Positions 3,001 through 49,322 of a DNA stretch of 52,177 nt are shown here, in pieces. The position numbers were made by a program, and so were the translations under genes. Position 1 is the first letter of the stretch. The number at the start of each line of letters is the position of its first letter. Below the pieces are notes generated by a model. That model saw only the letters and a program-made list of their open reading frames with translations, did no database searches and was not told the DNA's origin. This DNA comes from a virus. Lineage: Duplodnaviria > Heunggongvirae > Uroviricota > Caudoviricetes. The stretch lies in IMG/VR virus record IMGVR_UViG_2563366958_000018; one strand, written 5' to 3'.

Positions 3001-3009
3001 TCTCCTTAA
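1..3009 (+). CDS. tnpA: Tn3-family transposase TnpA (Tn1000/gamma-delta-like), 1002 aa
   Basis: Full-length ORF starting MPVDFLT; conserved Tn3-family TnpA blocks (RPGLMFD, GGGEVASADGMRFV, LSPLMHGHINMLGHY); stop codon lies inside the terminal IR as in Tn3-family elements. Confidence 0.9.
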   Translation: MPVDFLTSDQKQNYGCYAAEPNDVQLARYFHLDERDLAFINQRRGKHNRLGIALQLTTARFLGTFLTDLTQVLPGVQHFVAVQLNIHRPEVLSRYAERDTTLREHTALIKEYYGYHEFGDFPWSFRLKRLLYTRAWLSNERPGLMFDFATAWLLQNKVLLPGATTLVRLISEIRERANQRLWKKLAALPNKWQAAQVMELLVIPEGQRVSALEQLKKGPVTVSGPAFNEALERYIRLRSLEFSRLNFSGLPAIQLRNLARYAGMASVKYIARMPQQRKLAALTAFVKAQEITALDDAVDVLDMLILDIIREAKKTGQKKRLRTLKDLDQAALLLARACALLLDDNTDVPDLRQVIFKCVPKNRLAESVSKVNELARPQNNNFHDEMVEQYGRVKRFLPAVLRDLHFRAAPAGEHVLAAIHYLAELNGSKKRILDDAPEHIITGPWKRLVYDAEGRIQRAGYSLCLLERLQDALRRRDIWLENSDRWGDPREKLLQGEEWQTQRIPVCRALGHPVDGRKGVQQLAIQLDETWKAVASRFEKNAEVHICNEGKYPSLTISCLEKQEEPPSLLRLNNRIKQLLPPVDLTELLLEIDAQTGFTHEFAHVSESGARAQDLHISLCAVLMAEACNIGLEPLIKHNIPALTRHRLSWVKQNYLRAETLVSANARLVDFQSTLELAGRWGGGEVASADGMRFVTPVKTINSGSNRKYFGSGRGITWYNFVSDQYSGFHGIVVPGTLRDSIFVLEGLLEQQTGLNPVEIMTDTAGSSDIIFGLFWLLGYQFSPRLADAGEAVFWRVNKSANYGVLDKLARGYADLSKAESQWDEMMRTAGSLKLGTIHASELIRSLLKSSRPSGLAQAIMEVGRVNKTLYLLNYIDDEDYRRRILTQLNRGEGRHAVARAICYGQRGEIRKRYREGQEDQLGALGLVTNAVVLWNTLYMEEALSWMRRNGEEIIDEDIARLSPLMHGHINMLGHYTFTLPEDILKGELRALNLNINNELSP

Positions 3010-3042
3010 CGTACGTTTTCGTTCCATTGGCCCTCAAACCCC
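3005..3042. repeat. 38-bp Tn3-family terminal inverted repeat (Tn1000-like)
   Basis: CTTAACGTACGTTTTCGTTCCATTGGCCCTCAAACCCC is the reverse complement of a GGGGTTTGAGGGCCAATGGAACGAAAACGTACGTTAAG-type IR; overlaps the tnpA stop. Confidence 0.85.
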
Positions 3043-3843
3043 GATCTTTACGAGGTTGACGTAATAGTCATGGGGTAAGTTTGTCATGGTGATAGTTCCC
3101 TTAAAGGTTAAGGATACTCACCACCGTCTGGTTCCAATCATTGGGTGGTGAGACGTACAGGGTTGGAACTACCGGTCACCATGGAATCCGGCGAGTCTTA
3201 CGACTCCCCCGCACGCCCCACCATAATTTGGGTGTAGCAGTGCTTTACGCATAAAAAAACCGCTAACGCGGTATGCGCCATGATGATTATCGGGGTTCCA
3301 ATCCCGACCGTAGATTTTGCTACGGCTCGGAAAGTGTCCACCAATGGCGCATTCATGTCAATACGGCGGGATTTTAACAGAGACAACCACATAGCGTGGG
3401 TTTATTGGTAGGCAGAAACAAAAAAACCGCCCTATTGAGGACGGTTCTTTCGTGCTGATCGGATTCGCGGTCCTTTCAGCATAACGTCGTTGTATAAACA
3501 ACCACGCAAGCACAAGCAGCAAGTTAATTTTACCCAAAAGGTAATAATAGTCCACTATTATGCTTCAAAAAATTGTGGTTCTTGTTGTGCCTGCAAACTC
3601 ACAGATTGTGGGTAGGTTACTGATTTTGTGAAAATAAACGAGTTTTTTCGTTTAATTTCTTTCCTATTACTAATCTTAAAATAATCGTAAAATACCTGTG
3701 GACCTTCCCGCCGATTCGCACCCGGGCACCGACTTTAGGGGAGGATTCTCCGTTGCCGTACATGCAAGCACAAGCAGCCGTGCTTGCTCTCGCGTTGTTT
3801 TCGTCGGTGGGGATGCCGTGAAACGGCCTGTAAGGGCCATACA

Positions 3844-3966
3844 ATGAAAAAATACTGTATGTGTATTTTTATCGTTGTTACTGGGGCTTTGTTTACGCCA
3901 CATGGGGAGGGTTGGAAGATTACTGATAACGCTCTGAATGTGACGATAAACATTAGCAGCAAGTAG
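3844..3966 (+). CDS. Small hydrophobic ORF (40 aa, MKKYCMCIFIVVTGALF...), hypothetical
   Basis: ATG with weak upstream purine tract; single hydrophobic segment; followed directly by a strong hairpin plus T-run. Confidence 0.2.
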   Translation: MKKYCMCIFIVVTGALFTPHGEGWKITDNALNVTINISSK

Positions 3967-3971
3967 CGATT

Positions 3972-3995
3972 AGGCCCCTTCGGGGGCCTTTTTTA
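3972..3995 (+). terminator. Rho-independent terminator
   Basis: AGGCCCC-TTCG-GGGGCCT stem followed by TTTTTT. Confidence 0.5.
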
Positions 3996-4216: not shown

Positions 4217-4465
4217 TTACTTCTGGTTGTATTGAGCCTTGAGTAACTCAAAAGATTTTGTCAGCACTTCTTTCAATGACATATCCATTGAGCTGGCGAA
4301 CGTTTTGTACTCGCGTTTAAATTCAGGGTCGACGTTAAACGCCATTTGTGCCCCACCTGATTTGGTTCTGGTTGGCGTTTCAGTCGGGTCGAAAACCTGC
4401 GGTTGTTCGATCGATGGCGGTACGCCTTTGCTGTTCTTCTTTGGTGGTTTTGATGGTCCGGCCAT
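4217..4465 (-). CDS. ParG-like ribbon-helix-helix centromere-binding partition protein
   Basis: 82 aa, disordered basic N-terminus and C-terminal RHH-like segment (MAFNVDPEFKREYKTFASSMDMSLKEVLTKSFELLKAQ); directly downstream of ParA-like ATPase; strong RBS. Confidence 0.55.
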   Translation of the reverse strand: MAGPSKPPKKNSKGVPPSIEQPQVFDPTETPTRTKSGGAQMAFNVDPEFKREYKTFASSMDMSLKEVLTKSFELLKAQYNQK

Positions 4466-4477: not shown

Positions 4478-4508
4478 TTATATAAATCTATAAAACTATA
4501 ATTATATA
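4478..4508. repeat. AT-rich palindromic repeat block (TATAAATCTATA / TATAATTATATA) between the two partition genes
   Basis: Same motif family as at 5187-5287 and five other intergenic sites. Confidence 0.5.
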
Positions 4509-5177
4509 TTACGCGGCAGTAGTCAGAGCCTCAAGCTGGTTGATAATCCCCTGAATAACGTCGTCTGCCTTTTTGCGTGGCGCAACGTATGAGCATTCAA
4601 TGAGGCTTAAGCCCTTATCCTGAGCTTTGCTCAGAGCTGGCTTGTGGGGAATGTACTTATCGACAACAAAGTATGGCGTATTAGCTAGGTACTCTTGGGC
4701 TTCAATGTAGTCGGCTTCGTTTTCAGCCGCGCCTGAGAACACCATGCAAATTTTCTTGATTGGCACACCCTTTTTAACGATGCCGTGAGCTGTGTTAACG
4801 GTGGTTTCTAGGTCATCGGTAGAGAATCTGGTTGGCAAAATAACCATATCCAGAAATTCAGAGAGCTTCGGTACTGATTCAGATGCGTAGGCACCGCCAT
4901 CGACGATAACCAGGTCGTATACTTCTGATTCGATGATTTTCTGGACTTGTGATGGCGTGCCGCACGGCTGCGCCGCGATTGCAGGTTCGATATTGTTGGC
5001 CATTCTGCGTTGTACCCAACGCGTTACCGTTCCGTTAAGCACATCCATATCGATCAGGCATACATTCCAGCCGGCCTTTGCATAAGCAACTGCTAAAGCA
5101 CGGGCAATTGTTGATTTGGTTACGCCGCCTTTTCCGTTGAAAATACCTACAGAGATAGTCATTTGTCGAGACTCCAT
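4509..5177 (-). CDS. ParA/ParF-type partition ATPase (small ParA)
   Basis: Deviant Walker A (GIFNGKGGVTKST) near N-terminus, 222 aa; alternative start at 5162 (MTISV...) has the better RBS. Confidence 0.85.
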   Translation of the reverse strand: MESRQMTISVGIFNGKGGVTKSTIARALAVAYAKAGWNVCLIDMDVLNGTVTRWVQRRMANNIEPAIAAQPCGTPSQVQKIIESEVYDLVIVDGGAYASESVPKLSEFLDMVILPTRFSTDDLETTVNTAHGIVKKGVPIKKICMVFSGAAENEADYIEAQEYLANTPYFVVDKYIPHKPALSKAQDKGLSLIECSYVAPRKKADDVIQGIINQLEALTTAA

Positions 5178-5186
5178 GTGTTTGGT

Positions 5187-5287
5187 TATATAATTCTATA
5201 AATCTATATTTATAGAACGAGGTAAGCATAACCAACTTTTTGGCGGATGAAAAGCGTTTTATATAATTATATAAATCTATAATCATG
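5187..5287. promoter_or_regulatory. Candidate centromere/operator region upstream of the partition operon (two AT-rich palindromic repeat blocks)
   Basis: TTATATAATTCTATAAATCTATATTTATAGA (5187-5217) and TTTATATAATTATATAAATCTATAATCATG (5258-5287) immediately upstream of the ParA start. Confidence 0.45.
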
Positions 5288-5312
5288 TAAGCGGGCGTTA
5301 GCCCGCTTTCAG

Positions 5313-5687: not shown

Positions 5688-5722
5688 GCGTAGCCTCTTT
5701 TATACTTTTACATGTTGTCAAA

Positions 5723-5737
5723 ACCACAAAATGTGGT
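5723..5737. promoter_or_regulatory. CI-type operator (ACCAC-AAAAT-GTGGT), OL-like
   Basis: Perfect 5+5 inverted repeat matching the operator consensus seen in the cI-cro intergenic region. Confidence 0.5.
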
Positions 5738-5779
5738 TTTTTTGAGCGTAGAAATGCACGGCTTTCGCCGTGCTGTGTA

Positions 5780-6436
5780 TCATAACCAGTTGACAACACT
5801 AACTACGCGGCCAAGAACTTTATAACGCTTAAATTCCTCGTTATTCAGATGCTTAGTGTTCATTTCAGCATCCCTTTCGGTTGACAGCATAACAGCATTG
5901 TCACCCGGTATGACTCTACAGTGCCTCAAAACAACCAGGCCATTTCTGTCTTCAAGGGCATAGATCCCCTCATGAATCTCTGTATCGTCTGTATTAATCA
6001 GGACTTGGGAGCCTGGGGATATTGTTGGTGACATTAACTCATCGTTGCTCTGGAGAACTGACAGAGACGATGGGTTGATGTTCTTGCTTCGTAGAATCTC
6101 CTGTTCTATCGCCAGCACTGGCTTTTCTCCGGCGTGCGATGCTATGTCATTTTTTATAGCTACAAGCCCAGGAATAACAGGAGCGTTAGTATTCTGGGGT
6201 GGGAACGGGTTATCTGTTAAGCACGCGATATAAGGCGCTGATGCTTTCAGGGCGTGCGCGATTTTCTTGATGGCAGGTATAGATGGTTGTCTTAATCCGG
6301 CCTCATAGTTCTGCAAGGTGCTTAAGCCTATTCCAGTGACTTGCTGGAGATCTCCGGCAGTCATGCCGGATTGTTTCCGTAGAGTCTGAATGCGCAGACC
6401 TATTTCTTTCTTGATGTTCTCGTCGTTGCTTTTCAT
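5780..6436 (-). CDS. cI: CI-like phage repressor (XRE-type HTH + S24/LexA-like autopeptidase domain)
   Basis: N-terminal HTH (LRKQSGMTAGDLQQVTGIGLSTLQNYEAG), Ala-Gly cleavage-site candidate, Ser (LMSPT) and Lys (KVLGRV) of the S24 dyad; divergent from the Cro-like gene. Confidence 0.85.
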   Translation of the reverse strand: MKSNDENIKKEIGLRIQTLRKQSGMTAGDLQQVTGIGLSTLQNYEAGLRQPSIPAIKKIAHALKASAPYIACLTDNPFPPQNTNAPVIPGLVAIKNDIASHAGEKPVLAIEQEILRSKNINPSSLSVLQSNDELMSPTISPGSQVLINTDDTEIHEGIYALEDRNGLVVLRHCRVIPGDNAVMLSTERDAEMNTKHLNNEEFKRYKVLGRVVSVVNWL

Positions 6437-6473
6437 GTCTCATCAATCGTGAATGGTGGGTTATTTATACATT

Positions 6474-6591
6474 ACCACATTTAGTGGTTTTCACATGGTA
6501 AGACGAGAGGTGGACCACAAATAGAAGGTTATTTTTTGTTTCGCCCATTGAAAAACTCACGATATGTGGTTTTAATACCACATATCGTGGT
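6474..6591. promoter_or_regulatory. OR-like operator region: three ACCAC-N5-GTGGT palindromes between cI and the Cro-like gene
   Basis: ACCACATTTAGTGGT (6474-6488), CTCACGATATGTGGT (6556-6570), ACCACATATCGTGGT (6577-6591). Confidence 0.6.
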
Positions 6592-6610
6592 TTTAACTGG
6601 AGTTCGTTAA

Positions 6611-9010: not shown

Positions 9011-9130
9011 AAAATCTATAAATATATAATTATAGATTTATATAAAAAGTGCTTTACAGGTGGGAAAAAATTTCCTATGGTTATACCCGAAACCGAGCGA
9101 TACCCGCCCTGGTTAAACCGGAGAAATCTG
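9011..9130 (+). promoter_or_regulatory. Conserved promoter/operator/leader cassette, copy 1
   Basis: AT-rich palindrome + TTTACA-N17-TATGGT + 50-nt leader ending GGAG-N8-ATG; near-identical copies at 15968-16081 and 48828-48941. Confidence 0.5.
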
Positions 9131-10198
9131 ATGAATAAACAAGTAATTATTTCTGACTGGATCAACAACCCTAACAGCCTGTTAAGCACTGATACTGGCT
9201 ACCTATTACGCCATGTTAATGGTCGTATGGTCAAAAGCGATGAGCACGAAACCTTTTTCTTTGTTGAAGACGATGGGCGTATCTATGAGGATGGTTACTC
9301 TTATGAAGCCCAAACTGGTTGTATCCCTGCGGAGCTGGTGGATGTAACAGAAGATCTGCGCAAAGCATGGCTTGAACAGCAGCAGCGCGGAGATGATTAC
9401 GTAAACACCTATCAGGAACGCCAGAACGCGCGTCTTGCCCGATATATTGCTCGTGCAGAAAAAGCCAGAAAAGAAGGTGCGGTAGCGCATAAGCGAGCGC
9501 ATGACCTGTTGGATGTGATCCCGTTAGGCCAGCCGATTTTAGTTGACCATTATAGCGCGAAAGGCCATCGCCGCCGTTTGTCTAAAGCTGATGCGTTATT
9601 CAGAAAAGCGTTTGTTGAATGCGAAAGTAAAGCATCACACTACGAGAGCAAAGCCGCAGGTGTTGGTCGTAATGGAATTTCGTCTGATGATCCTGATGCG
9701 CTATTTAAGTTGCTTCGTAAGCTGCAAGGCTGCATGAAGTCACACGTCAAAATGAAGGCCGCAAATAAGGCCATTCGCAAATACAAAAAAGACCAAATAC
9801 AGCAGCTTTCTGCATTAATCGATCTCAGGTTTACAGAAAGCGAAGCCAAAGAGTTACTGGCCGGAGATTTCTGTGGGCGCATCGGATTCCCTTCATACGC
9901 ACTGAGCAACAATAACGCCGAAATCAAACGACTACAGAGCCGTATTAAGGAGCTTGAATCGGTCAAGTCTGTAACAGGAGCACAGCGCGAAGAATACGAC
10001 GGCTTTTCTATGGAGATAGATCCAGAGGATAACCGCATCCTGTTTTATTTCCCTGGCAAACCAGAGGCAAACATTCGTTCGCTGCTTAAATCACGCGCCT
10101 TTAAGTGGAGTCCAACCCGTAATGCATGGGTTCGCAAGATTACTCCAAACGCCCTGGCTGATGCCCGATATCTGAAAGAATCGCTATTGAAAGCCTGA
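9131..10198 (+). CDS. DUF3560-like protein (355 aa)
   Basis: GQPILVDHYSAKGHRRR and C-terminal FKWSP...NAWVR segments resemble DUF3560; start taken at the ATG after the conserved leader rather than the in-frame ATG at 9077. Confidence 0.55.
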   Translation: MNKQVIISDWINNPNSLLSTDTGYLLRHVNGRMVKSDEHETFFFVEDDGRIYEDGYSYEAQTGCIPAELVDVTEDLRKAWLEQQQRGDDYVNTYQERQNARLARYIARAEKARKEGAVAHKRAHDLLDVIPLGQPILVDHYSAKGHRRRLSKADALFRKAFVECESKASHYESKAAGVGRNGISSDDPDALFKLLRKLQGCMKSHVKMKAANKAIRKYKKDQIQQLSALIDLRFTESEAKELLAGDFCGRIGFPSYALSNNNAEIKRLQSRIKELESVKSVTGAQREEYDGFSMEIDPEDNRILFYFPGKPEANIRSLLKSRAFKWSPTRNAWVRKITPNALADARYLKESLLKA

Positions 10199-10275
10199 CA
10201 GTAAGCCTACGGCGGGATGTCTCCCGCCGTATATAGAATTATATATTTATATAAATGTATAAGGACGCCTCGACA

Positions 10276-10557
10276 ATGAAACGCAAAATTATTAACCCCC
10301 AAGATGTGATTAATTTCCTGACCGATCACCCATGTTCAAAAGTGGACGTAATCGCGGAGCACATTGGTGTGTCGCAGAACTCTATGCGTTGCAGACTGAG
10401 AAGCATGGTTGCCGAAGGACAGATAACAACCAGGAAAATAAATGGTTGCCTGTACTACTCCGCTAAACCGGAATTGCCATTTGGCATGAATCCTAACTCC
10501 ATGTTGTTTAACACCTTATTAGCCAAAGTTAAGCCGTTGAGAGGGGCTGTGGCATGA
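10276..10557 (+). CDS. Winged-helix DNA-binding protein (93 aa)
   Basis: HTH-like segment VDVIAEHIGVSQNSMRCRLRSMVAEGQI; RBS AAGGA upstream. Confidence 0.45.
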   Translation: MKRKIINPQDVINFLTDHPCSKVDVIAEHIGVSQNSMRCRLRSMVAEGQITTRKINGCLYYSAKPELPFGMNPNSMLFNTLLAKVKPLRGAVA

Positions 10558-14707: not shown

Positions 14708-14831
14708 TACCGCCTGTGATTGGGTAAAGCCCATCTACCTGACTGATCACGACATCGATGTTATGGACCGCCAGACAAAGAAAGATATTCTGGCTCATAA
14801 CAGGGCATGGGAAATCAACTGCCGAAAGTAA
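14622..14831 (+). CDS. o-spanin (Rz1-like lipoprotein), overlapping the i-spanin 3' end in another frame
   Basis: Signal peptide with lipobox LIAS-C, Pro-rich mature part. Confidence 0.6.
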   Translation: MYSRVLTIWLMTMLIASCGSRGSVPVVVDTACDWVKPIYLTDHDIDVMDRQTKKDILAHNRAWEINCRK

Positions 14832-15000
14832 TATATATTTCTATAATTATATAAATATATAGTTACAACATTCTATGCGCTTTTCTCATGGGCGCACGCA
14901 TCAACCATGTTTGTCTGATATGCCGCCGCGCCCAAAAATCCTGAATTTATTGGCTGGGATTTTCGTGCGCGGCGCCACACCAGACAAACAAATCAAATAT

Positions 15001-15076
15001 GGCCCCTTAGCTTAGTGGTTAGAGCAGGCGACTCATAATCGCACGGTCATCGGTTCAAATCCGGTAGGGGCCACCA
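15001..15076 (+). tRNA. tRNA with CAU anticodon, most similar to tRNA-Ile2 (ileX-type, lysidine-dependent AUA decoder); could also be a Met tRNA
   Basis: Cloverleaf folds: acceptor GGCCCCT/AGGGGCC, anticodon loop CUCAUAA, T-loop TTCAAAT, 3' CCA encoded. Confidence 0.85.
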
Positions 15077-15383: not shown

Positions 15384-15971
15384 ATGGAGGCAATTGCATT
15401 GTTTAATCTGATTTATGCAGATCCCCCCTGGGAATACAAAGATAAGTGTAAGGATGGGAATCGTGGAGCTGGTTTTAAGTATCCAACGATGAAAGCTGAG
15501 GATATTGCTCGTATTCCTGTCTGGCAGCTTGCTAATCCTGAATCGTGTTTGTTGGCCATGTGGTGGGTTCCGACTCAGCCAGAAGAAGCGTTGCTGGTGG
15601 TGAAAGCATGGGGATTCAGGCTTATGACCATGAAGGGCTTCACATGGAACAAATGTGGTAGCCGACAACCAGATAAGCTGGTGATGGGGATGGGGCATAT
15701 GACTCGTGCAAACAGTGAAGATTGCTTGTTTGCGGTAAAAGGCAAATTGCCGACCCGCCTTGATGCGGGGATCATTCAGTCGTTTACATCGCCTCGTCTG
15801 GAGCATTCTCGGAAGCCTGATGTGGTTCGTGACAAGCTGGTAAGGCTGTTAGGTGATGTTCCTCGTATTGAGCTGTTTGCTCGCGGTGATTTACCTGATG
15901 GTTGGCATGGCTGGGGCAACCAGTGCAATGGAGGTATCCAGTTGCATGATGCTCTCTGGCAAGTGGCATAG
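15384..15971 (+). CDS. MT-A70-family N6-adenine DNA methyltransferase (orphan)
   Basis: Catalytic DPPW motif (IYADPPWEY), 195 aa; no adjacent restriction endonuclease. Confidence 0.8.
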   Translation: MEAIALFNLIYADPPWEYKDKCKDGNRGAGFKYPTMKAEDIARIPVWQLANPESCLLAMWWVPTQPEEALLVVKAWGFRLMTMKGFTWNKCGSRQPDKLVMGMGHMTRANSEDCLFAVKGKLPTRLDAGIIQSFTSPRLEHSRKPDVVRDKLVRLLGDVPRIELFARGDLPDGWHGWGNQCNGGIQLHDALWQVA

Positions 15972-16081
15972 AATTATATAATTATAGATTTATATAAAAA
16001 GTGCTTTACAGGTGGGAAAAAATTTCCTATGGTTATACCCGAAACCGAGCGATACCCGCCCTGGTTAAACCGGAGAAATCT
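15968..16081 (+). promoter_or_regulatory. Conserved promoter/operator/leader cassette, copy 2
   Basis: Identical to copy 1 over ~100 bp. Confidence 0.5.
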
Positions 16082-16352
16082 GATGAAAGTACAAGACCGT
16101 GAAGTAGTAAAAAACCTCCTGCAATACCTGACCTCAAAAAACCTGACGGGCAGCGTTGAGTTCCGTGAAGCGTTAAAACATTTCAACGTCACTACGGTTT
16201 ATCGTTGGGAAAACAAACATTCTGAAAGACCGTATGTGGTGGATGTTTTTGCGCCTGATATTGAGTGCGGTTTTGAGCGTCATTCGTTCAAGGAGAAACA
16301 TTCTGCTGATTTTTTTTGTGAGGTTGTATGTGCGGCAGGAGATGATGAGTGA
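16082..16352 (+). CDS. Hypothetical protein (90 aa)
   Basis: First ORF after cassette copy 2. Confidence 0.45.
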
Positions 16353-16549
16353 TGCGTATTTCCTTCAAACGTGCGACTGAGCAGCAACGCAAAGAGTTCC
16401 TGGCTGATGATGTAGCGACCGTTTATGACCTCATGAAAGAGGTTGTGGAATCAGGGAACTACACGGCGGCAAAGATGCTTAAACTGCAATTCTTGCTGGG
16501 CGACCTGAAATACAAATCCGAAGTTGTCGCCGGACGACGCGAGCATTAA
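16349..16549 (+). CDS. Hypothetical protein (66 aa)
   Basis: Overlapping start with upstream ORF; terminator follows. Confidence 0.4.
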   Translation: MMRISFKRATEQQRKEFLADDVATVYDLMKEVVESGNYTAAKMLKLQFLLGDLKYKSEVVAGRREH

Positions 16550-16572
16550 ACCGTAACGATAACGAACAACGA

Positions 16573-16598
16573 GCCTCGGCAATTGCCGGGGCTTTTTT
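16573..16598 (+). terminator. Rho-independent terminator
   Basis: GCCTCGGC-AATT-GCCGGGGC then TTTTTT. Confidence 0.5.
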
Positions 16599-16623
16599 AC
16601 ATCCAGACAAAGGAGAACATGGG

Positions 16624-16923
16624 ATGCCTTCGACAAGCACCAAAAAAGAAATGGCGGTTAGTGATGTGCTTTACGCGCTTTCGACTATATGTGACGGAGC
16701 AATGATGAGGATGAAAGTCCTCCGTGAAGCATACGGAAAAAGTCACGATGAGGCAGCTAAAGAATGCCTGAATGAGATTGTGGACTTCATTGATAACCAT
16801 CGTTCAGTTATATCGCGTCAACCGACAGAGTCGTCCATCACGATTAGCGCACCGGTTATCAATATATCAGTAACTGCGGCGTGTAAATCAGCAGCGGAAG
16901 ATGATCGTGCTTATGCCGAGTGA
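16624..16923 (+). CDS. Hypothetical protein (99 aa)
   Basis: AGGAGA RBS 7 nt upstream. Confidence 0.45.
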   Translation: MPSTSTKKEMAVSDVLYALSTICDGAMMRMKVLREAYGKSHDEAAKECLNEIVDFIDNHRSVISRQPTESSITISAPVINISVTAACKSAAEDDRAYAE

Positions 16924-17113
16924 TTTGTTCTGGTTTCAGCTTCCAATAAGAGATTTGTTGGTATTTCTGGCTGGCGCTTACGTCTGGAGAAAAGCGAAAG
17001 ATACCTCGTTATCTTTGAGGTTTGTCTTAGCTATATCGGTAGGAACCGCGCTGGGTACGGCGTATCTCTTGATATTACTGGAGGTATTCATTGAAAAATG
17101 GATAGTTTCATGA
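16901..17113 (+). CDS. Small membrane protein (70 aa)
   Basis: Two hydrophobic helices. Confidence 0.3.
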   Translation: MIVLMPSDLFWFQLPIRDLLVFLAGAYVWRKAKDTSLSLRFVLAISVGTALGTAYLLILLEVFIEKWIVS

Positions 17114-17262
17114 ATGGTCTTGGCATTTTTCTGATGGTTGTGGCTGTGTGTTTTTGTATCTCGCTGGTGGTTATTGCTGGTGTCCTGTGGCGCATCTTAG
17201 TGGCGCAGAGAGCTTTTCGGCTTAAGCGGGAGCAAATGCGCCTTGATTTCTATCGAAAGTAA
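17110..17262 (+). CDS. Small single-TM protein (50 aa), below the ORF-track size cut-off
   Basis: ATGA overlap with upstream ORF; hydrophobic helix; terminator follows at about 17271-17300. Confidence 0.3.
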   Translation: MNGLGIFLMVVAVCFCISLVVIAGVLWRILVAQRAFRLKREQMRLDFYRK

Positions 17263-17309
17263 CTCTTACAGCCTCGCGTGTCGCGGGGCTTTTATTTTCA
17301 GGTGATGTT

Positions 17310-17720
17310 ATGGAAAAGAAAGAAGATAAACCGATTGCCATTGGTGCAGAGTCTGTTCCGTTTAAGTTTGAATTATCCCAACTGGTAACAATGCGTATCA
17401 GTGAAGAGTGGGGAGAAGTTCAAGCCCGTGCTCAGTATGCAAATGGCGAAAACCAGTATTTGATTCACTATCAGGCGGCTGATGGTCGTGCTACCACAGA
17501 GTGGTTCGGTGAATCGATGTTGATTGCGATGGAAGATGATCGTTATCCAGGCTGCCCTGTTTTTGCCTGTGTTGATTTGCCAGAAGGCGCGGTACTTGAA
17601 GACGACAAAGAAGAATGCTCGTCTGATGGCGAACTTGTCATTACTGGAATCGTTGATGGTAAGCCGGAATACTCTCGTATTGAGGTAAATAACGGCCGCA
17701 TCCGTTTGATCCCTGCGTAA
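17310..17720 (+). CDS. Hypothetical acidic protein (136 aa)
   Basis: ORF followed by a 10-bp stem hairpin plus T-run. Confidence 0.45.
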   Translation: MEKKEDKPIAIGAESVPFKFELSQLVTMRISEEWGEVQARAQYANGENQYLIHYQAADGRATTEWFGESMLIAMEDDRYPGCPVFACVDLPEGAVLEDDKEECSSDGELVITGIVDGKPEYSRIEVNNGRIRLIPA

Positions 17721-17954
17721 CGCATTACAGCAGCTCTTGTGCTTACCAGGGGCTGCGATAATGCGCAAACCAAAGCTGCCTCATTAACTCCAGCTCGCTG
17801 TGGAGTTAATGCTGGTGGCTTTTTTATTACTGGAAGGTGGGCGACCGCCGTCAGTTGCGACCTGACGACAGTCATTCATACCCACAGGGTGCCGTGGATA
17901 CAAACCGAGGCCCACTTGCTTGCACAAGCGAGGGGATTTTAGCGGATAAACGGC

Positions 17955-18578
17955 ATGACAAAACATCTTAATGTGGTTTCTTTACCACTTTCTGTGTTGA
18001 TTGGTTATGAAAAGAACGCTCGCACACACTCCGTGGAGCAGGTAGATCAGATTATTGCCAGCATACAGGAGTACGGATGGACTAATCCGATCCTGATAGA
18101 CGAGAACAACGTTGTAATTGCTGGTCATGGTCGAATTGCTGCGGCCACTCAGTTGGGGATGGATGATGTTCCCTGCATTGTTCTGGCTGGGCTAACGGAG
18201 AATCAGAAGAAGGCATATCGTCTGGCCGACAACCGTATTCCGCTGAATGCTGGTTGGGATGAAGAGTTGTTAAGCGCGGAGCTTGCAGATCTTGCGGCCG
18301 ATGATTTTGCTCTGGACTCAATTGGTTTTACTCAGCGCGAACTGGATAACTTATTGAGTGCGGCGGTCTACGATGACACAGAGGGTATGGATATCCCATT
18401 TGAGAAGGATGAGGCCAAATCAGGCGTAAAAGTTCAGTACCTGTCATTTGGAGGTCATAAAATCCCGGCAACGGATGAGGAAGCGGATCGTTTTGACTGC
18501 GCGGTGTCTCGTTATGTTGATGATAATGGCAGCTATATCGGATTTGTATCCGCATTGCTGGCTGGGGAGGTGTGCTGA
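17955..18578 (+). CDS. ParB/Srx-like nuclease-domain protein (207 aa)
   Basis: N-terminal ParB-type fold with GHGR arginine motif (VIAGHGRIAAA); paralogue of 21244-21834. Confidence 0.7.
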   Translation: MTKHLNVVSLPLSVLIGYEKNARTHSVEQVDQIIASIQEYGWTNPILIDENNVVIAGHGRIAAATQLGMDDVPCIVLAGLTENQKKAYRLADNRIPLNAGWDEELLSAELADLAADDFALDSIGFTQRELDNLLSAAVYDDTEGMDIPFEKDEAKSGVKVQYLSFGGHKIPATDEEADRFDCAVSRYVDDNGSYIGFVSALLAGEVC

Positions 18579-19951
18579 TGCTTCACCTCAATTACGACAT
18601 AACGCACCTACGCGGCGCGGAATATAACCCGCGTTTTATCGGTGAGGATGATCTTGCGAGGCTGGCGGAAAGCGTCAGGGAGCTGGGGCTTGTGAAGCCA
18701 TTGATAGTGCGCGGCGATTTGCTGGTGGCGGGACACCAAAGGACGAAGGCGCTACGTAAGTTGGGAATAACGCGTGCTGCGGTGTATGTGTTGCCCTGTG
18801 AAACGACGGTATACGACGAAGTACGGTTTAACCAACTGCATAACGGAACGGATTTTGATAGCGGAGATGAGCGTTGCAGGGTGTCCGGTCTGGAAGATAA
18901 GCATGGTTTTGTTCAGGTATCGGCAAGCCAGATCTCAGGCAATATGCGCGCGAAAATGGCATATGTTCGAAAGAACATAGCGGAACTGGTTATCAAGTAT
19001 GGTCCGTGGGGTGGTTGTGTTGCTACTCAGTCTGGTGAGGTTATTCACTGTGCTCAGTATGCATTAGCAGCGAAAATGACGCGCACACCGCTAACGGTGT
19101 TTGTGATCCCTGATGTTGAGAAGGAAAAATACCAAAGTTATCTGAATAAAACTTATGGTGTATTTGAGTATTCTCATCTGGAGAAAACAACATACATCCA
19201 GACGTATGCGCAGCTTATGCGGTTGCGTAATGGTGGCAGCCTGAAATCAAATCTGTATGAGTCGTTGATCCTCCCGATCGTTGCCAAGACGCCAAGAGGA
19301 ATTGATTTTGGTTCGGGGCAGGGAGACTACGCGCGAATGCTCAGGGCAAAGGGATATAACCTGCATGATCTTGAGCTTTTTCGCCGTAAGGGCGCTGGAA
19401 ACACTCTGGATAGGGCTGCAACAAACCGAATGATTGATACGCTGGTGGACGACTTAAAAACGCGAGGGCGTTACGACTACGTGATTTGCGATAGCGTTTT
19501 GAACTCGGTCGATAGTGTCGAGGCTGAATGGTCCGTTCTGACGGTTCTGAAAGGCCTGTGTAAAGCTGGTGGGTCAATATTCTTTTCTGGTCGTAGCCGT
19601 GGAGAGCTGGAAACAGTCCTGAAGCAAACACAAGCGGCGAGTTCCAAAAGCCGGCTTTATTTTATTGATCATAACGGTTTTACCGCGTTGTACCGGAAGG
19701 GGCACTGGTTTTACCAGAAGTTTCACTCTGATGATGAAGTGAAGCAGTTGTGTCGTGTACATGGTTTCAGGATTAAGCGGTCAATATTCAACTGTAATAG
19801 CTGGTATTTGCACGTCATTAACGATGATTCCCTTAGTTGGGCGAGTCTGGAGAAAGCTGTTCGTTTTGAGTTTGAGTTGCCGTTGCCTGGTGGTTCAACA
19901 ATCGGACGATCTGATGATGTGCTGGCGGCTTTCCGGCCGTTGATTAAGTAG
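18578..19951 (+). CDS. ParB/Srx-like N-terminal domain fused to a class I SAM-dependent methyltransferase domain
   Basis: N-terminal LVAGHQRTKA ParB motif; C-terminal motif I GIDFGSGQGDYA and acidic post-I motif (YVICDSVLN); no DPPY/NPPY motif seen. Confidence 0.6.
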   Translation: MLHLNYDITHLRGAEYNPRFIGEDDLARLAESVRELGLVKPLIVRGDLLVAGHQRTKALRKLGITRAAVYVLPCETTVYDEVRFNQLHNGTDFDSGDERCRVSGLEDKHGFVQVSASQISGNMRAKMAYVRKNIAELVIKYGPWGGCVATQSGEVIHCAQYALAAKMTRTPLTVFVIPDVEKEKYQSYLNKTYGVFEYSHLEKTTYIQTYAQLMRLRNGGSLKSNLYESLILPIVAKTPRGIDFGSGQGDYARMLRAKGYNLHDLELFRRKGAGNTLDRAATNRMIDTLVDDLKTRGRYDYVICDSVLNSVDSVEAEWSVLTVLKGLCKAGGSIFFSGRSRGELETVLKQTQAASSKSRLYFIDHNGFTALYRKGHWFYQKFHSDDEVKQLCRVHGFRIKRSIFNCNSWYLHVINDDSLSWASLEKAVRFEFELPLPGGSTIGRSDDVLAAFRPLIK

Positions 19952-21243: not shown

Positions 21244-21834
21244 ATGGCTCTAAAAATCGAATATTTACCAGTCGGTAAGTTGCTCAGATATGCCAAAAAT
21301 TCACGGACTCATTCAGATGAGCAAGTTGAACAGTTGGTGAACAGTATCCGTGAGTTCGGTTTCACTAATCCTGTGCTGATCGATGAAAAGAATGAACTGA
21401 TTGCGGGGCATGGGCGGCTTGCAGCAGCCGAAATTCTGGAAATGGATAAAGTTCCGGCGATTCGGTTGAGTAACCTTTCTGAAAAACAGAAGAAGGCTTA
21501 CAGGATTGCAGATAACAAGCTGGCCTTAAATGCTGGCTGGGATATGCAGCTTCTGGCCGAAGAAGTCAAAGAGTTAATGGATGATGATTTTGATATTGAT
21601 CTGCTTGGGTTTAATGATGCAGAGCTTGACGAAATGTTAAGCGATGAACAGCCGCAGGAAGAAGACGATAATTCTTCCCCTGTTGTTCAAATTAAGTACC
21701 TGGCTATTGATAAAGAACGTATTCCCGCGACGGATATGGAAATTGCATTGTTGCTGGATGTTTATCGTCAGTACCACGACGCGCATGAAACGCATGAGGG
21801 ATTTGTTCAGTATCTTGCTAATGGTTGCAAGTAA
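21244..21834 (+). CDS. ParB/Srx-like nuclease-domain protein immediately upstream of terminase small subunit
   Basis: LIAGHGRLAAA motif; clear paralogue of 17955-18578. Confidence 0.7.
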   Translation: MALKIEYLPVGKLLRYAKNSRTHSDEQVEQLVNSIREFGFTNPVLIDEKNELIAGHGRLAAAEILEMDKVPAIRLSNLSEKQKKAYRIADNKLALNAGWDMQLLAEEVKELMDDDFDIDLLGFNDAELDEMLSDEQPQEEDDNSSPVVQIKYLAIDKERIPATDMEIALLLDVYRQYHDAHETHEGFVQYLANGCK

Positions 21835-22390: not shown

Positions 22391-24247
22391 ATGGGCGAAA
22401 CAGTATGGAGCACCGCTTTTTTCCGTGCGCTTCGCCCTAAATCACGGCTAACTGTTTCCGAATGGGCTGATAAGTATCGTCATGTAGCGCCGGGAACGTC
22501 TCCAGAGCCAGGGCCGTGGCGTACAAGCCGAGTGCCATATTTGCGTGAACCAATGGATGTTATTGGTGACGCTGATACAGAAACAGTAGTGATGCAATGT
22601 AGCTCGCAAATTGGTAAATCCGAATTACAGCTAAATGTTATGGGTTACTTTGCAGATCAGGAGCCATCTCCTCAGTTGATGATTTATCCAACGGTAGAGG
22701 CGGCTGAGGCTTTTTCAAAAGAGCGTATTGATCCGACGTTCAAATATTCCCCTGGTTTGAAACACAAGCTGCATGAAGGGAAAGAGGGGCGCGGTGCAGC
22801 CAAAAAGTCCAGCACGACTATACGTATGAAGCATTACGCTGGTGGATATATAGCACTTGTTGGTGCTAATTCCCCAGCAGGTCTTGCATCCAGGCCAATT
22901 CGAATACTGTTAGCTGATGAGATTGATCGTTACGGTGTGACGCAGGAGGGCGACCCACTAAAACTAGGTATTCAGCGTACTACCAACTTTCATAATCGTA
23001 AGAAAGTTTTTGTTTCTACTCCTGTTTTGGAGGAAACAAGCAAAATCCACAAGTGGTTTAAGCTCTCCGATCAGCGTTACTACCATGTTCCTTGCCCATG
23101 TTGTGGCACCATGCAGGTGATGAAATGGTCGCAAGTCAGATGGGATAAGAGCGATTCAGGTGAGGCGTTACCGGAAACGGCCAGATATGAGTGCTGTGAG
23201 TGCGGCGGGATTATGCGCGGATCTGGTAAACCAGACGTTGATTGGTTGGCGAAGGGGGTATGGATAGCTGAACATACTGGAGTTAAAGGTATTGTTGGTT
23301 TTCATATTAACAGTCTTTACTCCCCGTGGGTTGCATTGTCAGAGCTGGTTGAAGAATTTACGGAAGCAACCAGAAACCGCGATAAAAATGGATTAATGGA
23401 GTTTATTAACCTTAAGCTGGGTGAGCCATGGAAAGAGGATGCTAAAGACGATATCGATCCTGAATACTTGTTGCAACGCAGAATAAGGTTTGAAGAGTTT
23501 TTACCAGATGATGTTTTATTGTTAAGTGCTGGTGTTGACGTACAGGACACGTATTTAGTTTGTGAATTGGTCGGTTGGGGAAAAGGTAAGGAGTCATGGG
23601 GGATAGAATATAAAATATTCCCAGGTGATCCCGCACAAGATGTTGTCTGGAAACAACTTGATGAATACTTACTCCGTAGCTGGTCATTCCGTGACGGTCG
23701 AAAATTACAGATTTCTTCCGTTTGTATTGACTCTGGTGGGCATTTTACGACAGAGGTATATCGCTTTACTAAGCCGAGAGAATCAAGGCGAATATACTCT
23801 ATCAGGGGGCGTGGTGGGGTAGGTTTACCATTTATAGGAAAGCCAAGTAATAATAACCGTGTGGGTGCTATGTTGTTTAATTTGGGGGTTGATGATGGTA
23901 AAGGGACCATCATGGCAAGAATTAAACTACATGATCCTGGTCCTGGTTATATGCATTTCCCATTAGATTCTGACAGAGGATATGATACCGAATACTTTAA
24001 AGGATTATTATCAGAGAAAAAAATATTTGAATATAAAAATGGGCAGACAAAAGAAAAGTGGGTGAAAGTCTACGAGCGTAACGAGCCTCTTGATTGCCGT
24101 AACTATGCAACTGCCGCGATGGAAATTCTGAACCCTAATTTTAACTGGCTTGCCGAACAGGAAATGCGAGGTAATGTGTATGTGCAGAACTCGTCAGGTA
24201 TACGTAGAAGACGCCGTAGAGTTATAAGTAAAGGCGTAACCATATAG
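22391..24247 (+). CDS. Terminase large subunit (lambda gpA family)
   Basis: 618 aa; gpA-like layout with PCPCCG zinc motif and C-terminal nuclease domain. Confidence 0.9.
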   Translation: MGETVWSTAFFRALRPKSRLTVSEWADKYRHVAPGTSPEPGPWRTSRVPYLREPMDVIGDADTETVVMQCSSQIGKSELQLNVMGYFADQEPSPQLMIYPTVEAAEAFSKERIDPTFKYSPGLKHKLHEGKEGRGAAKKSSTTIRMKHYAGGYIALVGANSPAGLASRPIRILLADEIDRYGVTQEGDPLKLGIQRTTNFHNRKKVFVSTPVLEETSKIHKWFKLSDQRYYHVPCPCCGTMQVMKWSQVRWDKSDSGEALPETARYECCECGGIMRGSGKPDVDWLAKGVWIAEHTGVKGIVGFHINSLYSPWVALSELVEEFTEATRNRDKNGLMEFINLKLGEPWKEDAKDDIDPEYLLQRRIRFEEFLPDDVLLLSAGVDVQDTYLVCELVGWGKGKESWGIEYKIFPGDPAQDVVWKQLDEYLLRSWSFRDGRKLQISSVCIDSGGHFTTEVYRFTKPRESRRIYSIRGRGGVGLPFIGKPSNNNRVGAMLFNLGVDDGKGTIMARIKLHDPGPGYMHFPLDSDRGYDTEYFKGLLSEKKIFEYKNGQTKEKWVKVYERNEPLDCRNYATAAMEILNPNFNWLAEQEMRGNVYVQNSSGIRRRRRRVISKGVTI

Positions 24248-43127: not shown

Positions 43128-43446
43128 AATTTAGTGATGAATGTTGAATCATCAGGAATATCATGCAATACCAATGCATGAGCACCTATTGTGACATTGT
43201 TTCCTATACGCACTTTGCCACCAAGAATGGTGGCATTACAACCAATGGTCACATTATGCCCTATAACAATATCCATATCATTAAATTCCCCGCGAAGTCC
43301 AATAGTTACTCCGGGCTTAATTGAACAATTTTCACCGATTGTTACTTTGTGACCGATAACAACACTGTTGAGATAAGAAATATCAAAGCCTTTCCCTATA
43401 TTTACAGTTAAAGGGACTGTTACATTATATTTATCAAGAATGAAAC
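43091..43446 (-). pseudogene. 3' portion of a hexapeptide-repeat (LbH) acetyltransferase gene interrupted by the Tn3 remnant
   Basis: Frame encodes repeated [LIV]-G-x-x-x-x hexapeptides (VIGHKVTIGENCSI, IVIGHNVTIGCNATILGGKVRIGNNVTIGAHALV); reading frame joins in-frame with 45016-45222 when the insertion and one TTCTA copy are removed. Confidence 0.6.
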
Positions 43447-43451
43447 GTTCT

Positions 43452-43599: not shown

Positions 43600-44472
<873 letters not shown>

Positions 44473-44642: not shown

Positions 44643-45222
<580 letters not shown>

Positions 45223-48820: not shown

Positions 48821-48827
48821 CGCTCAT

Positions 48828-48941
48828 AGAATTATATAATTATAGATTTATATAAAAAGTGCTTTACAGGTGGGAAAAAATTTCCTAAGGTTATACCCGA
48901 AACCGAGCGATACCCGCCCTGGTTAAACCGGAGATAACCCG
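48828..48941 (+). promoter_or_regulatory. Conserved promoter/operator/leader cassette, copy 3
   Basis: Identical to copies 1 and 2 except a T-to-A change (TAAGG vs TATGG) and a divergent last 10 nt. Confidence 0.5.
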
Positions 48942-49322
48942 ATGAGCATGATTAAAATCCGCAAAAACGCTTTCCTTAAAATTCAAACTATCCTGGCTGG
49001 TTCTGTTGGCGTGATTTGCCGTTCTTCTTCAAGCCGCATCGATGACGGCTACGATGATGAGTATCGTTTGTCCTCGTGCGATGAGGCTTTAACCTGGCTG
49101 AAGGAGAATCAGGAACGTGCCCAGGTATATCTGGAAACAGAGAACGGCAATCAGATGCTCCGTATTAGCGGTCGTTATGGATTTGAAACCACATTCATGG
49201 CCTATTTTAATCAGGCTTACTTTGACAAGGAGTTGGCCTGGTACACTGATCGCATGAGCAAAAGCGAGCCAGCCCCGATTACACCGCCGAACGATAAACC
49301 ATTTTTATTCCTCGTTAAGTAA
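48942..49322 (+). CDS. Hypothetical protein (126 aa)
   Basis: First ORF after cassette copy 3. Confidence 0.45.
   Translation: MSMIKIRKNAFLKIQTILAGSVGVICRSSSSRIDDGYDDEYRLSSCDEALTWLKENQERAQVYLETENGNQMLRISGRYGFETTFMAYFNQAYFDKELAWYTDRMSKSEPAPITPPNDKPFLFLVK

Follow-up and report, generated by a model that had tools for sequence, protein, structure and literature searches.

Cassette copy 2, a unit of about 120 nt (15966-16085) in the DNA of a tailed phage-plasmid, is probably a promoter under the control of both a plasmid partition protein and an HTH repressor, one of a set of gene-converted copies that head variable cargo genes. The element is a temperate phage-plasmid of ~48 kb carried by E. 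coli ATCC 25922, and all positions refer to the window, the whole stretch of 52,177 nt that was analyzed. The upstream end of the cassette overlaps the stop codon of an MT-A70 methyltransferase gene, and six small ORFs lie downstream. From 5′ to 3′ it consists of four 8-bp units (TTATAKAW), a sigma-70 promoter, a 17-bp palindrome, a leader hairpin, a Shine-Dalgarno sequence and an ATG:

15384-15971, plus strand: MT-A70 family DNA methyltransferase gene (Pfam MT-A70, E = 3.4e-23; PHROG DNA methyltransferase, E = 1e-102)
15966-15997, plus strand: array G of cassette copy 2, contiguous units GCATAGAA, TTATATAA, TTATAGAT and TTATATAA, consensus TTATAKAW
16005-16033, plus strand: sigma-70-type promoter, TTTACA (−35), 17-nt spacer and TATGGT (−10), from a consensus scan (9 of 12 matches)
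16013-16029, plus strand: 17-bp palindrome TGGGAAA-AAA-TTTCCTA, core TAGGA-N7-TCCTA, in the spacer and overlapping the −10
16043-16066, plus strand: leader hairpin (RNAfold), outer stem AACC/GGUU and inner stem GCG/CGC
16072-16085, plus strand: Shine-Dalgarno GGAGA and ATG of the first cargo gene, at which the repeated cassette ends in a three-copy alignment

The initial annotation had copy 2 abutting the methyltransferase stop. Its location is correct, but the TAG (15969-15971) falls within the first array unit (GCATAGAA, 15966-15973), which means that stop and cassette overlap and are not simply adjacent. The units of array G score 6, 8, 8 and 8 of 8 in register, with flanks at no more than 4, and we propose that the array is a putative binding site of a ParG-like partition protein. 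The −35, the 17-nt spacing and a TAnnnT −10 are conserved in all cassettes compared (15/15, five genomes), and this geometry is retained in E. coli, Salmonella and Serratia relatives despite differing surrounding sequence; AAACCGGAGA is likewise conserved at the 3′ end of the cassette in all relatives. A distance of 2-3 nt separates the leader hairpin from the point where the transcript is predicted to begin. RNAalifold on 10 cassettes gives it nine pairs, two of which carry AU-to-GC changes on both sides between lineages, compensatory changes that represent essentially one split between two lineages. An Rfam search of the cassette and leader returned no known RNA family, its sole match being a sub-threshold isrJ hit (E = 0.28) over the terminator T1 listed below, and the screen for antisense RNAs that could pair with the leader in trans gave matches of chance length only (longest 11 nt, ~0.6 expected).

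Downstream of the cassette, three terminators partition the small ORFs:

16083-16549, plus strand: g1 (89 aa, 16083-16352) and g2 (66 aa, 16349-16549), PHROG 6143 and 6621, families of unknown function
16571-16600, plus strand: intrinsic terminator T1 from the terminator scan, hairpin 16571-16594, dG −18.8 kcal/mol
16624-17262, plus strand: g3 (99 aa), the hydrophobic g4 (70 aa) and g5 (54 aa, with a single predicted membrane helix), from ORFs and hydropathy
17270-17298, plus strand: intrinsic terminator T2 from the terminator scan, hairpin 17270-17290, dG −15.3
17310-17720, plus strand: g6, an acidic protein of 136 aa (ORF; computed pI 4.4)
17772-17832, plus strand: intrinsic terminator T3, hairpin 17772-17822 (RNAfold dG −27.5) followed by the U run UUUUUUAUUA

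The initial annotation described a cluster of small membrane and acidic proteins, split by two intrinsic terminators and driven by copy 2 over 16082-17720. The description of the proteins holds, as the 70- and 54-aa ORFs are hydrophobic (hydrophobic 19-mers with mean Kyte-Doolittle values of 2.2 and 3.1) and the 136-aa ORF has a pI of 4.4. Both terminators were found as well, but there is a third and stronger one, T3, behind the last ORF. The assigned extent of transcription needs narrowing: a conserved sigma-70-type promoter is present, but T1 begins only 22 nt after g2, so the cassette promoter alone would serve mainly g1-g2 and not the 16082-17720 set. Pfam, PADLOC and NCBIfam gave no match for g1 and g2 and no name to the cassette-driven proteins, and none of the cassette genes matched a defence or anti-defence model. 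The Salmonella relative has only diverged g1-, g4- and g6-like genes and the Serratia relatives have none of g1-g6, and comparison of these gene contents supports the view that the genes behind the cassettes are variable cargo.

A promoter-like site, terminators and cargo that varies among relatives are also what an autonomous moron would present, with a constitutive promoter and its own terminators acting independently of the phage and plasmid circuits and with the A+T stretch serving as an UP element. A+T-rich DNA upstream of a −35 can indeed act in this way. The evidence against such autonomy comes from the distribution of the two operator-like elements over the genome.

The 42-nt core of the cassette matches the window three times (9046, 15998, 48856) with 0-1 mismatches where shuffled sequences are expected to give none, in agreement with the earlier claim that the cassette is a repeat; a 127-nt repeat family, D2, is located at 9017, 15969 and 48827. 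The other two copies head different genes:

9014-9133, plus strand: cassette copy 1, with array D (9014-9045), promoter (9053-9081), palindrome (9061-9077) and ATG (9131), heading a DUF3560 gene (9131-10198)
48824-48944, plus strand: cassette copy 3, with array H (48824-48855), −10 TAAGGT, palindrome (48871-48887) and ATG (48942), heading a gene for a 126-aa protein (48942-49322) and flanked on both sides by terminators (48793-48815 and 49331-49357)

Over the 90 nt that run from the last array unit up to the ATG, copy 2 matches copy 1 at every position, and copy 3 has four differences. Within each E. coli plasmid, copies 1 and 2 have a −10 variant in common. The Salmonella relative has the same 92-nt core in all three of its copies (3/3), and this core differs from the E. 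coli copies at 8-13 positions. The identity of the copies within each genome points to gene conversion as the process that keeps the three cassettes uniform. A precedent is given by the PeSLs of T4-type phages, repeated units of promoter and stem-loop that border variable genes and through which recombination can take place (PMC2839356). They resemble the three near-identical cassettes, for which we have evidence of gene conversion here, but PeSLs combine a T4 early promoter with a terminator stem-loop and occur by the dozen, whereas the cassettes number three per genome, contain putative regulator sites and share a leader up to the ATG.

The window contains exactly eight stretches with at least 26 of 28 A+T positions, and each is made up of four contiguous TTATAKAW units in a single 8-bp register. 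TTATAKAW occurs 49 times in the window, compared with 14.6 in shuffles. The eight arrays are scattered over seven loci, one of them a partition locus:

4217-4465, minus strand: ParG-like centromere-binding protein (CBP), 82 aa, from AF2, family profile and gene order
4478-4509, minus strand: array A, four units, located after the parA stop and before the CBP start
4509-5177, minus strand: ParA ATPase, type Ib, 217-222 aa (Pfam CbiA/ParA/MipZ over the whole length; PHROG ParA-like)
5186-5290, minus strand: parA promoter region, with array C (5259-5290), −35 TTTTCA (5253-5248), −10 TATGCT (5230-5225) and array B (5186-5217)
10231-10262, plus strand: array E, four units, directly adjoining the Shine-Dalgarno of the gene for a 93-aa winged-helix protein (10276-10557)
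14831-14862, plus strand: array F, four units, flanked by the lysis genes and a tRNA-Met gene (15001-15073)

Array C ends 5 nt upstream of the parA −35 and array B begins 7 nt downstream of the −10, so that the two bracket the parA promoter, and array A takes up the space separating parA from the CBP gene. The parA promoter is our own reading, with 8 of 12 consensus matches, which is under the threshold of the scan, and the scan did not call it. Arrays D, G and H stand 7 nt upstream of the −35 in the three cassette promoters. Arrays A, E and F have no recognizable promoter downstream, and 'operator' therefore cannot describe every array.

These positions bear on two alternatives. The A+T stretch required as an UP element by an autonomous moron is here a strict four-by-eight-bp array, which also occurs where there is no downstream promoter (A, B and E) and which brackets the parA promoter. 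A second alternative, which we consider unlikely, takes the arrays as dispersed parS sites only and the cassettes as recombining mobile units that shuffle cargo in the manner of PeSLs, with no transcriptional role for the CBP. Dispersed centromeres are known from the phage-plasmid N15. Gene conversion between copies, variable cargo and the PeSL precedent (PMC2839356) agree with this alternative, as does the finding that four contiguous repeats are the minimum functional parS of pSM19035 (PMC9499535). It accounts poorly for the four arrays that, in two lineages, keep a constant distance of 5-8 nt to a −35, which is operator geometry, and for array B, which covers the parA start site as operators do. 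Dispersed parS function is largely compatible with control of the cassettes by two regulators rather than exclusive of it.

Three further explanations of the arrays were rejected. Iterons, whether for the IncFII-type RepA or for the DUF3560/primase-like protein, do not fit arrays that are scattered over seven loci and that go with ParA/CBP in other replicons. Promoters of a T7-like or other phage RNA polymerase do not fit arrays at par, and there is no RNA polymerase gene in the annotated parts of the window or in the annotated relative. As candidate readers, the 93-aa winged-helix protein and a 124-aa protein encoded beside parA are without homologues in the array-bearing Serratia relatives.

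The ParA protein is Walker-type, without an N-terminal HTH domain, and a KGGVTKS motif is visible in its translation. The CBP ORF starts 43 nt after the parA stop; the same gene order is found in seven other contexts, and the CBP gene lies directly behind a ParA in every context examined. AF2 predicts a disordered basic tail, a short extended segment and two helices. Pfam RHH_10 matches 14 of 48 members of the CBP family (74-92 aa) and ParG matches 1 of 48, and the family profile searched against the PDB aligns in register with ParG (1p94) at a weak E of 0.72, with no omega or pSM19035 chain among its matches. With the 82-aa protein of the window itself, Pfam gave no family match, phmmer against the PDB gave no match, and Foldseek with the monomer model against the PDB gave ribosomal and axonemal noise only. 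We make a weak assignment of this protein, at sequence level, to the ribbon-helix-helix class and propose it as the candidate reader of the 8-bp units.

The array layout recurs beside a distant ParA/CBP pair in an unrelated IncFII plasmid (ParA 46% identical) and with ParA/CBP in metagenomic and plasmid contigs (L006, L007, L011, L012, L013). The core of the unit varies from lineage to lineage (TTATAKAW, TTAAAKAW, TTAGCGAW, TTAACGAW, TTGTAGAA), and the predicted beta-strand residues of the CBP change in step with the unit (M-A-F-N-V, M-N-F-N-V, L/M-N-F-K-V, L-N-F-Q-V). In two Serratia phage-plasmids, whose CBPs are 46% (L008; 44% in an alignment) and 38% (L009) identical by tblastn, the par arrays and all three cassettes carry the A-type unit TTAAAKAW; L008 contains 26 A-type units (4.3 expected) and 2 T-type units (3.9 expected). 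The concerted switch from T to A at all sites in the Serratia lineage also speaks against an autonomous moron.

Reading of the arrays by another protein, whether a nucleoid protein of the host (H-NS, IHF, Fis) or a phage regulator such as a cI-like repressor, seems to us distinctly improbable. TpA-rich A+T DNA is a typical H-NS target, and a cI-like repressor co-occurs with the arrays in the phage-plasmid relatives. Host proteins, however, cannot explain lineage-specific cores (TTAGCGAW, TTGTAGAA) that track the CBP, and the arrays accompany ParA/CBP in the non-phage IncFII plasmid, where the match to the cI-like repressor is weak and partial (65 aa of the HTH region, E = 2e-4). The region around cI has its own, different palindromes, ACCACA-N4-TGTGGT, which are likely the operators of the cI-like repressor, distinct from the arrays.

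The second shared element is the 17-bp palindrome, which occurs exactly four times per genome in the window and in four relatives (L002, L003, L008, L009), where we calculate a chance expectation of ~0.1 copies. Three copies are in cassettes, and the fourth precedes a gene that follows repA and lies outside any cassette operon:

47266-47600, plus strand: fourth palindrome, the perfect TAGGAAA-AGA-TTTCCTA (47266-47282), and the gene of a 95-aa HTH protein (47313-47600)

This palindrome lies between a −35 (TTGCCA) and a −10 (TACCAT) upstream of the gene, whose product is Aca/Xre-like. In four genomes (the window, L002, L003 and L008) it forms part of the HTH gene promoter; the L009 copy has the same −35 setting, but the stretch downstream is unannotated. 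The AF2 model of the HTH protein (pLDDT 83.7) has AcrIF24 as its best Foldseek match (TM 0.70, modest E of 2e-3, 31% identity), with further matches to Aca1-DNA complexes containing palindromic DNA, Aca2, HipB and C-proteins. Inverted repeats are the sites through which Aca proteins repress promoters (PMC8633003, PMC9410906), and we propose the 17-bp palindrome as the putative operator of the 95-aa protein. A palindrome over the −10 that is shared with the HTH gene promoter is a further point against an autonomous moron, a reading we hold to be improbable. The initial annotation had proposed independently regulated moron-like genes; promoter, terminators and variable cargo support a moron-like layout, but two operator-like elements shared genome-wide argue against independence. 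As the arrays are shared with parA-CBP and the palindromes with the HTH promoter, the cassette reads as a member of a plasmid-style regulon and not as an autonomous moron.

By comparison with characterized systems, the cassette set would be a variant of the known plasmid global regulons of omega (pSM19035) and ParG, here in a phage-plasmid. ParG binds tetramer boxes with 4-bp spacers, an 8-bp period, at operator and centromere alike (PMC3130281). The ParF-ParG-parH/OF locus of TP228 likewise pairs a small Walker-type ParA with a following protein of ~76-82 aa that has a basic flexible tail and a strand-helix-helix, and it has arrays of 8-bp period, direct and inverted, at the par promoter. The TP228 sites act as operator and centromere (PMC3130281), the two roles that we propose here. 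There is no significant sequence similarity between the systems (ParG 1p94, E = 0.72), and the TP228 unit is an ACTC box with an AT spacer in 8-12 units, whereas here TTATAKAW occurs in exactly four units at seven loci of a phage genome. Omega, a ribbon-helix-helix partition protein, binds 7-bp repeats that overlap three promoters (copS, delta, omega), connecting partition to further plasmid functions, and at least four contiguous repeats are needed (PMC9499535). Repeats at several promoters outside the par operon are common to both regulons (here D, G and H; also at the E and F loci), but omega uses heptads in arrays of 7-10 on Gram-positive plasmids, in contrast to eight four-unit arrays in a tailed phage-plasmid. 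No homology to omega was detected, and the promoters here would add a second, HTH-type operator.

The systems of Aca1, Aca2 and AcrIF24 pair a small dimeric HTH protein with a palindrome in or near core promoters including its own, as is proposed here for the 95-aa protein, whose predicted fold is closest to AcrIF24 and Aca1, but the HTH gene here shares no operon with the cassette genes and does not follow an anti-CRISPR gene in one. Lambdoid morons have a similar unit of promoter and terminator with accessory genes between conserved phage genes. Morons are autonomous by definition, unlike this cassette, which shares two operator-like elements with plasmid maintenance genes and has three homogenized copies.

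On the reading in which both proteins control the cassettes, host RNA polymerase would fire from the cassette while both regulators are still at low levels, such as immediately after the DNA has entered a cell. The A+T-rich array may contribute in the manner of an UP element, and the mRNA may be stabilized by the leader hairpin. Copy 2 would yield g1-g2, with most transcripts ending at T1. As the 82-aa ribbon-helix-helix CBP from the parA-CBP operon builds up, its dimers would coat the four units (about −43 to −75), and a dimer of the 95-aa HTH protein would occupy the palindrome over the −10 and, jointly with the CBP, turn the promoter down. The four-unit arrays around the parA promoter would provide autoregulation and are probably also dispersed centromere sites. 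We infer the direction of control, repression versus activation, from the position of the sites. In this arrangement, plasmid inheritance and the expression of cargo genes look to be wired together.

More tentatively, the CBP and the Aca-like repressor could form a two-key timer that allows a burst of establishment or anti-defence cargo after entry and then silences it, with the arrays doubling as dispersed centromeres; we regard this as possible, though doubtful. Candidates for the cargo of such a timer are the DUF3560 protein, g1-g6, the 126-aa protein and perhaps the unit of tRNA-Met and MT-A70.

Accessory and resistance genes are commonly carried by phage-plasmids, and one relative contains blaTEM-1. 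To our knowledge, little is known beyond P1 and N15 of how plasmid upkeep and phage gene expression are coordinated. A search of the literature on the plasmid family, by accession and phage name, returned no description of the elements. The family is present in 74 of 5,426 complete E. coli genomes, among them that of ATCC 25922, a universal reference strain, and the predictions are thus cheap to test.

If control by both proteins is correct, a type Ib partition protein would be a genome-wide regulator in a tailed phage, and the shared cassettes would flag cargo worth screening for anti-defence or establishment functions. The CBP family would offer a simple ribbon-helix-helix recognition code, in which the core of the 8-bp unit changes with one or two beta-strand residues. 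If the timer is also correct, the pairs of unit and protein (TTATAKAW, TTAAAKAW, TTAGCGAW and others) would constitute a natural orthogonal set of ribbon-helix-helix specificities.

Cassette copy 2 (15966..16085) belongs to a real repeat with two further members, copy 1 (9014..9133) and copy 3 (48824..48944). A 42-nt core gave three matches with 0-1 mismatches versus none in shuffles, and the three copies can be aligned gap-free from the A+T-rich part through the ATG. This A+T-rich part is an octamer array and not generic A+T DNA: only eight stretches in the whole 52-kb window contain at least 26 A+T in 28 positions, and each of these is made up of exactly four adjoining 8-bp units that fit TTATAKAW, share one register and may face either way, with flanking sequence that does not match the unit. 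The unit occurs 49 times in the window, compared with 14.6 in block shuffles. The initial annotation had the cassette directly abutting a methyltransferase stop; the upstream ORF (15384-15971) does encode an MT-A70 methyltransferase, but its TAG (15969-15971) is contained in the first repeat unit. The expected promoter was recovered by scan (TTTACA-17-TATGGT, 16005-16033). Its −35 is positioned 7 nt 3′ of the last array unit, a 17-bp palindrome (TGGGAAA-AAA-TTTCCTA) forms the spacer and the first two −10 bases, and a small two-part leader hairpin begins 2-3 nt after the predicted transcript start, followed by AAACCGGAGA and then the ATG. Comparison of ten different E. coli, Salmonella and Serratia cassettes shows two outer pairs of this hairpin switching from A-U to G-C, with both partners replaced.

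Six small ORFs (g1-g6) and three intrinsic terminators (T1-T3) follow copy 2 in this order:

g1, 89 aa
g2, 66 aa
T1, 16571-16594, −18.8 kcal/mol
g3, 99 aa
g4, 70 aa
g5, 54 aa
T2, 17270-17290, −15.3 kcal/mol
g6, 136 aa
T3, 17772-17822, −27.5, the strongest of the three, 3′ of the last small ORF

Both terminators originally proposed (T1 and T2) were found by scan, and T3 makes a third. As described, the cluster encodes small membrane and acidic proteins (g4 and g5 are hydrophobic; g6 has a pI of 4.4), and Pfam, PADLOC and NCBIfam assigned no named family to any of the six. Promoter, terminators and variable cargo all fit the suggested moron-like unit. The proposals that copy 2 drives the whole ORF set and that the unit is independently regulated fared less well: by itself this promoter would scarcely serve the full set of six ORFs, and it is unlikely that the unit is regulated independently.

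The window is a temperate phage-plasmid, with phage genes (contractile-tail virion module, lysis genes, cI-like repressor and antirepressor) and plasmid genes (IncFII-type RepA, RelE/ParE-family toxin with HTH antitoxin, small ParA). Over a queried 3-kb stretch, Yersinia phages vB_YpM_39, 41 and 44 are ~97% identical to it. Its cassette is carried at 94-99% identity by a ~48-kb non-mobilizable E. coli plasmid family that includes the E. coli ATCC 25922 plasmid NZ_CP009073.1. Among complete E. coli genomes the cassette is present in 74/5426, with a median of three copies per genome and 214 of the 217 places on plasmids.

Copy 1 and copy 2 agree at every position over 90 nt, and copy 3 has four differing positions. 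Within each of the two E. coli plasmids, copy 1 matches copy 2 exactly and the pair has a common −10 variant, TATGGT in the window and TAAGGT in ATCC 25922. All three Salmonella copies are identical over the 92-nt promoter-leader core and differ from the E. coli copies at 8-13 positions. Given this within-genome identity, the copies have been homogenised, a pattern for which gene conversion would most simply account.

The eight arrays (A-H) are located as follows:

Array A, fills the interval between the parA stop and the 82-aa ORF (4217..4465, minus strand)
Array B, starts 7 nt 3′ of the parA promoter −10 and extends to the parA ribosome site
Array C, 5 nt upstream of the candidate parA promoter TTTTCA-17-TATGCT
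Arrays D, G and H, within the three cassettes
Array E, directly next to the ribosome site of the gene for a 93-aa winged-helix protein
Array F, lysis genes on one side and tRNA-Met on the other

The parA promoter is our own reading, matching 8/12 consensus positions and falling under the scan threshold. A strong hairpin without a U run (10208-10229, ΔG −19) lies between the DUF3560 gene and array E, directly 5′ of the array. At the array E position of a Salmonella Concord relative (NZ_CP044178.1, 10001-11059) a DGQHR-domain gene is inserted directly 3′ of the DUF3560 gene, another sign that array/cassette junctions are cargo insertion points.

The 82-aa protein is likely a ParG-like centromere-binding protein (CBP), also in its fold. 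Its gene lies directly 3′ of a ~215-aa ParA in every genomic context examined. The N-terminal half is basic and predicted to be disordered, leading into a short extended stretch and then two helices. Family members are 74-92 aa long; of 48 members, 14 matched Pfam RHH_10, nine Antitox_RHH and one ParG. The family profile is in register with ParG (1p94) across the strand and first helix, at an E-value of only 0.72; Foldseek with the monomer model and phmmer against the PDB were both uninformative. Three genes with ParB/Srx N-terminal domains 5′ of the terminase (17955-19951, 21244-21834), one of them (18572-19951) fused to a SAM-dependent methyltransferase domain, are not the window's partition protein.

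We compared unit and CBP across relatives. A Salmonella relative (L003), whose CBP is 90% and capsid protein 84% identical to those of the window, shares all eight array positions with it. A non-phage IncFII plasmid with a ParA 46% identical also has TTATA-type 8-bp arrays, located 5′ of parA, in the parA-CBP gap and at other intergenic sites. In the non-phage IncFII plasmid L005 (NZ_CP019191.1; related ParA/CBP), TATAA-type A+T arrays at 3282, 5051, 22099, 24442 and 24952 precede type IV secretion, SprT-like, nuclease and mobC genes, a distribution that hints at a comparable global regulon. More distant ParA/CBP pairs keep the layout with an altered unit, and the predicted β-strand residues of the CBP family vary in step with it:

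Units and predicted CBP strand residues
TTATA unit: strand M-A/S-F-N-V
TTAAAKAW (L006, L008, L009, L013): strand of TTAAA unit M-N-F-N-V
TTAGCGAW (L007) and TTAACGAW (L011): strand of CG-containing cores L/M-N-F-K-V
TTGTAGAA (L012): strand L-N-F-Q-V

The Serratia phage-plasmids L008 and L009 are the decisive comparison for the proposed array-CBP link. L008 has a contractile tail and L009 a lambda-like tail; each carries three cassettes of the same design with a homologous leader, and both have the A-type unit in par arrays and cassette arrays alike. L008 contains 26 A-type units (4.3 expected) and two T-type units (3.9 expected), the reverse of the window. No homologues of the 93-aa winged-helix protein or the 124-aa protein beside parA were found in L008/L009. 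The cI-like repressor co-occurs with arrays in this comparison, and the cI region has its own distinct palindromes (ACCACA-N4-TGTGGT). Palindromes of this type flank the cI-like gene (5780-6436, minus strand) at 5716-5743, 6470-6490 and 6549-6600, and are probably operators of this repressor, distinct from the two element types of the cassette. L008 (CP083756.1), from Serratia marcescens, carries blaTEM-1 (23202-24062) alongside the same regulatory design. In L009 (NZ_CP074139.1) a non-contractile, lambda-like tail module is joined to the same plasmid/early-gene module as in its relatives (cI-like gene, ParA, CBP, Rha, Ref, DUF1064, three cassettes), so different virion types have this regulatory module in common.

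Exactly four copies of the palindrome core TAGGA-N7-TCCTA are present in every one of five genomes (the window, L002, L003, L008 and L009); we calculate a chance expectation of ~0.1 copies in 52 kb. Three copies per genome lie in cassette promoters, and the fourth has the same −35/spacer/−10 setting. It precedes a conserved ~95-aa gene 3′ of repA in the window (47313-47600), L002, L003 and L008, and an unannotated stretch in L009. In the right arm every E. coli and Salmonella copy has TTCCTA, and every Serratia copy has GTCCTA. The 95-aa protein (PHROG 8351, unknown function) has a confident predicted model (pLDDT 83.7, pTM 0.76), with the HTH part of AcrIF24 as top structural match (TM 0.70, 31% identity, E 2e-3), Aca1 bound to palindromic DNA as the other best match, and further matches to Aca2, HipB and restriction-modification controller proteins. 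From sequence and model we infer a dimeric HTH repressor that would autoregulate and occupy the three cassette promoters.

Several other features of the window were observed. Its start is exactly the ATG of a 1002-aa Tn3-family transposase gene (1-3046; PHROG transposase), which ends in a terminal inverted repeat that we take to resemble that of Tn1000 (gamma-delta), and its end is exactly the antirepressor ATG (51035-52177, minus strand); the remainder of the transposon therefore falls outside the window. Rfam matches over the gathering score at 3141-3326 (minus strand) and 3698-3994 (plus strand) comprise C4 antisense RNA (84 bits), isrK (70 bits) and ryfA (142 bits). In P1/P7, ant is controlled by C4, the antisense RNA of immI. 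Because the transposon fragment sits between c4 and ant, this copy may have an interrupted immI-like operon. The tape-measure gene and the long tail-fibre-region ORF contain in-frame repeats, tandem or nearly so, of 120, 132 and 159 bp (34600-34881, 40239-40458, 42160-42381). In the ATCC 25922 plasmid, oppositely oriented tail-fibre-assembly genes adjoin a 'recombinase family protein' gene 3′ of the tail-fibre gene, an arrangement that suggests an invertible host-range segment; in the corresponding region of the window (42510-45188) only uncharacterised ORFs were seen, on both strands.

Taken singly, the parts belong to known types. [quoted passage not shown] A search of the available literature found no description of these elements, and the combination appears new: a tailed phage-plasmid in which a type Ib partition protein goes with dispersed four-unit arrays, the pairing of those arrays with an Aca-like operator, and three homogenised promoter-leader cassettes.

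From the anatomy and comparisons observed here, we propose the following working. While the regulators are scarce, host polymerase would fire at the cassettes; at copy 2, g1-g2 would be made and most transcripts would end at T1. CBP dimers would next coat the four units just 5′ of the −35, and the HTH dimer would sit over the −10 and, jointly with CBP, may reduce cassette output. The same arrays would autoregulate parA and would probably also serve as dispersed centromere sites.
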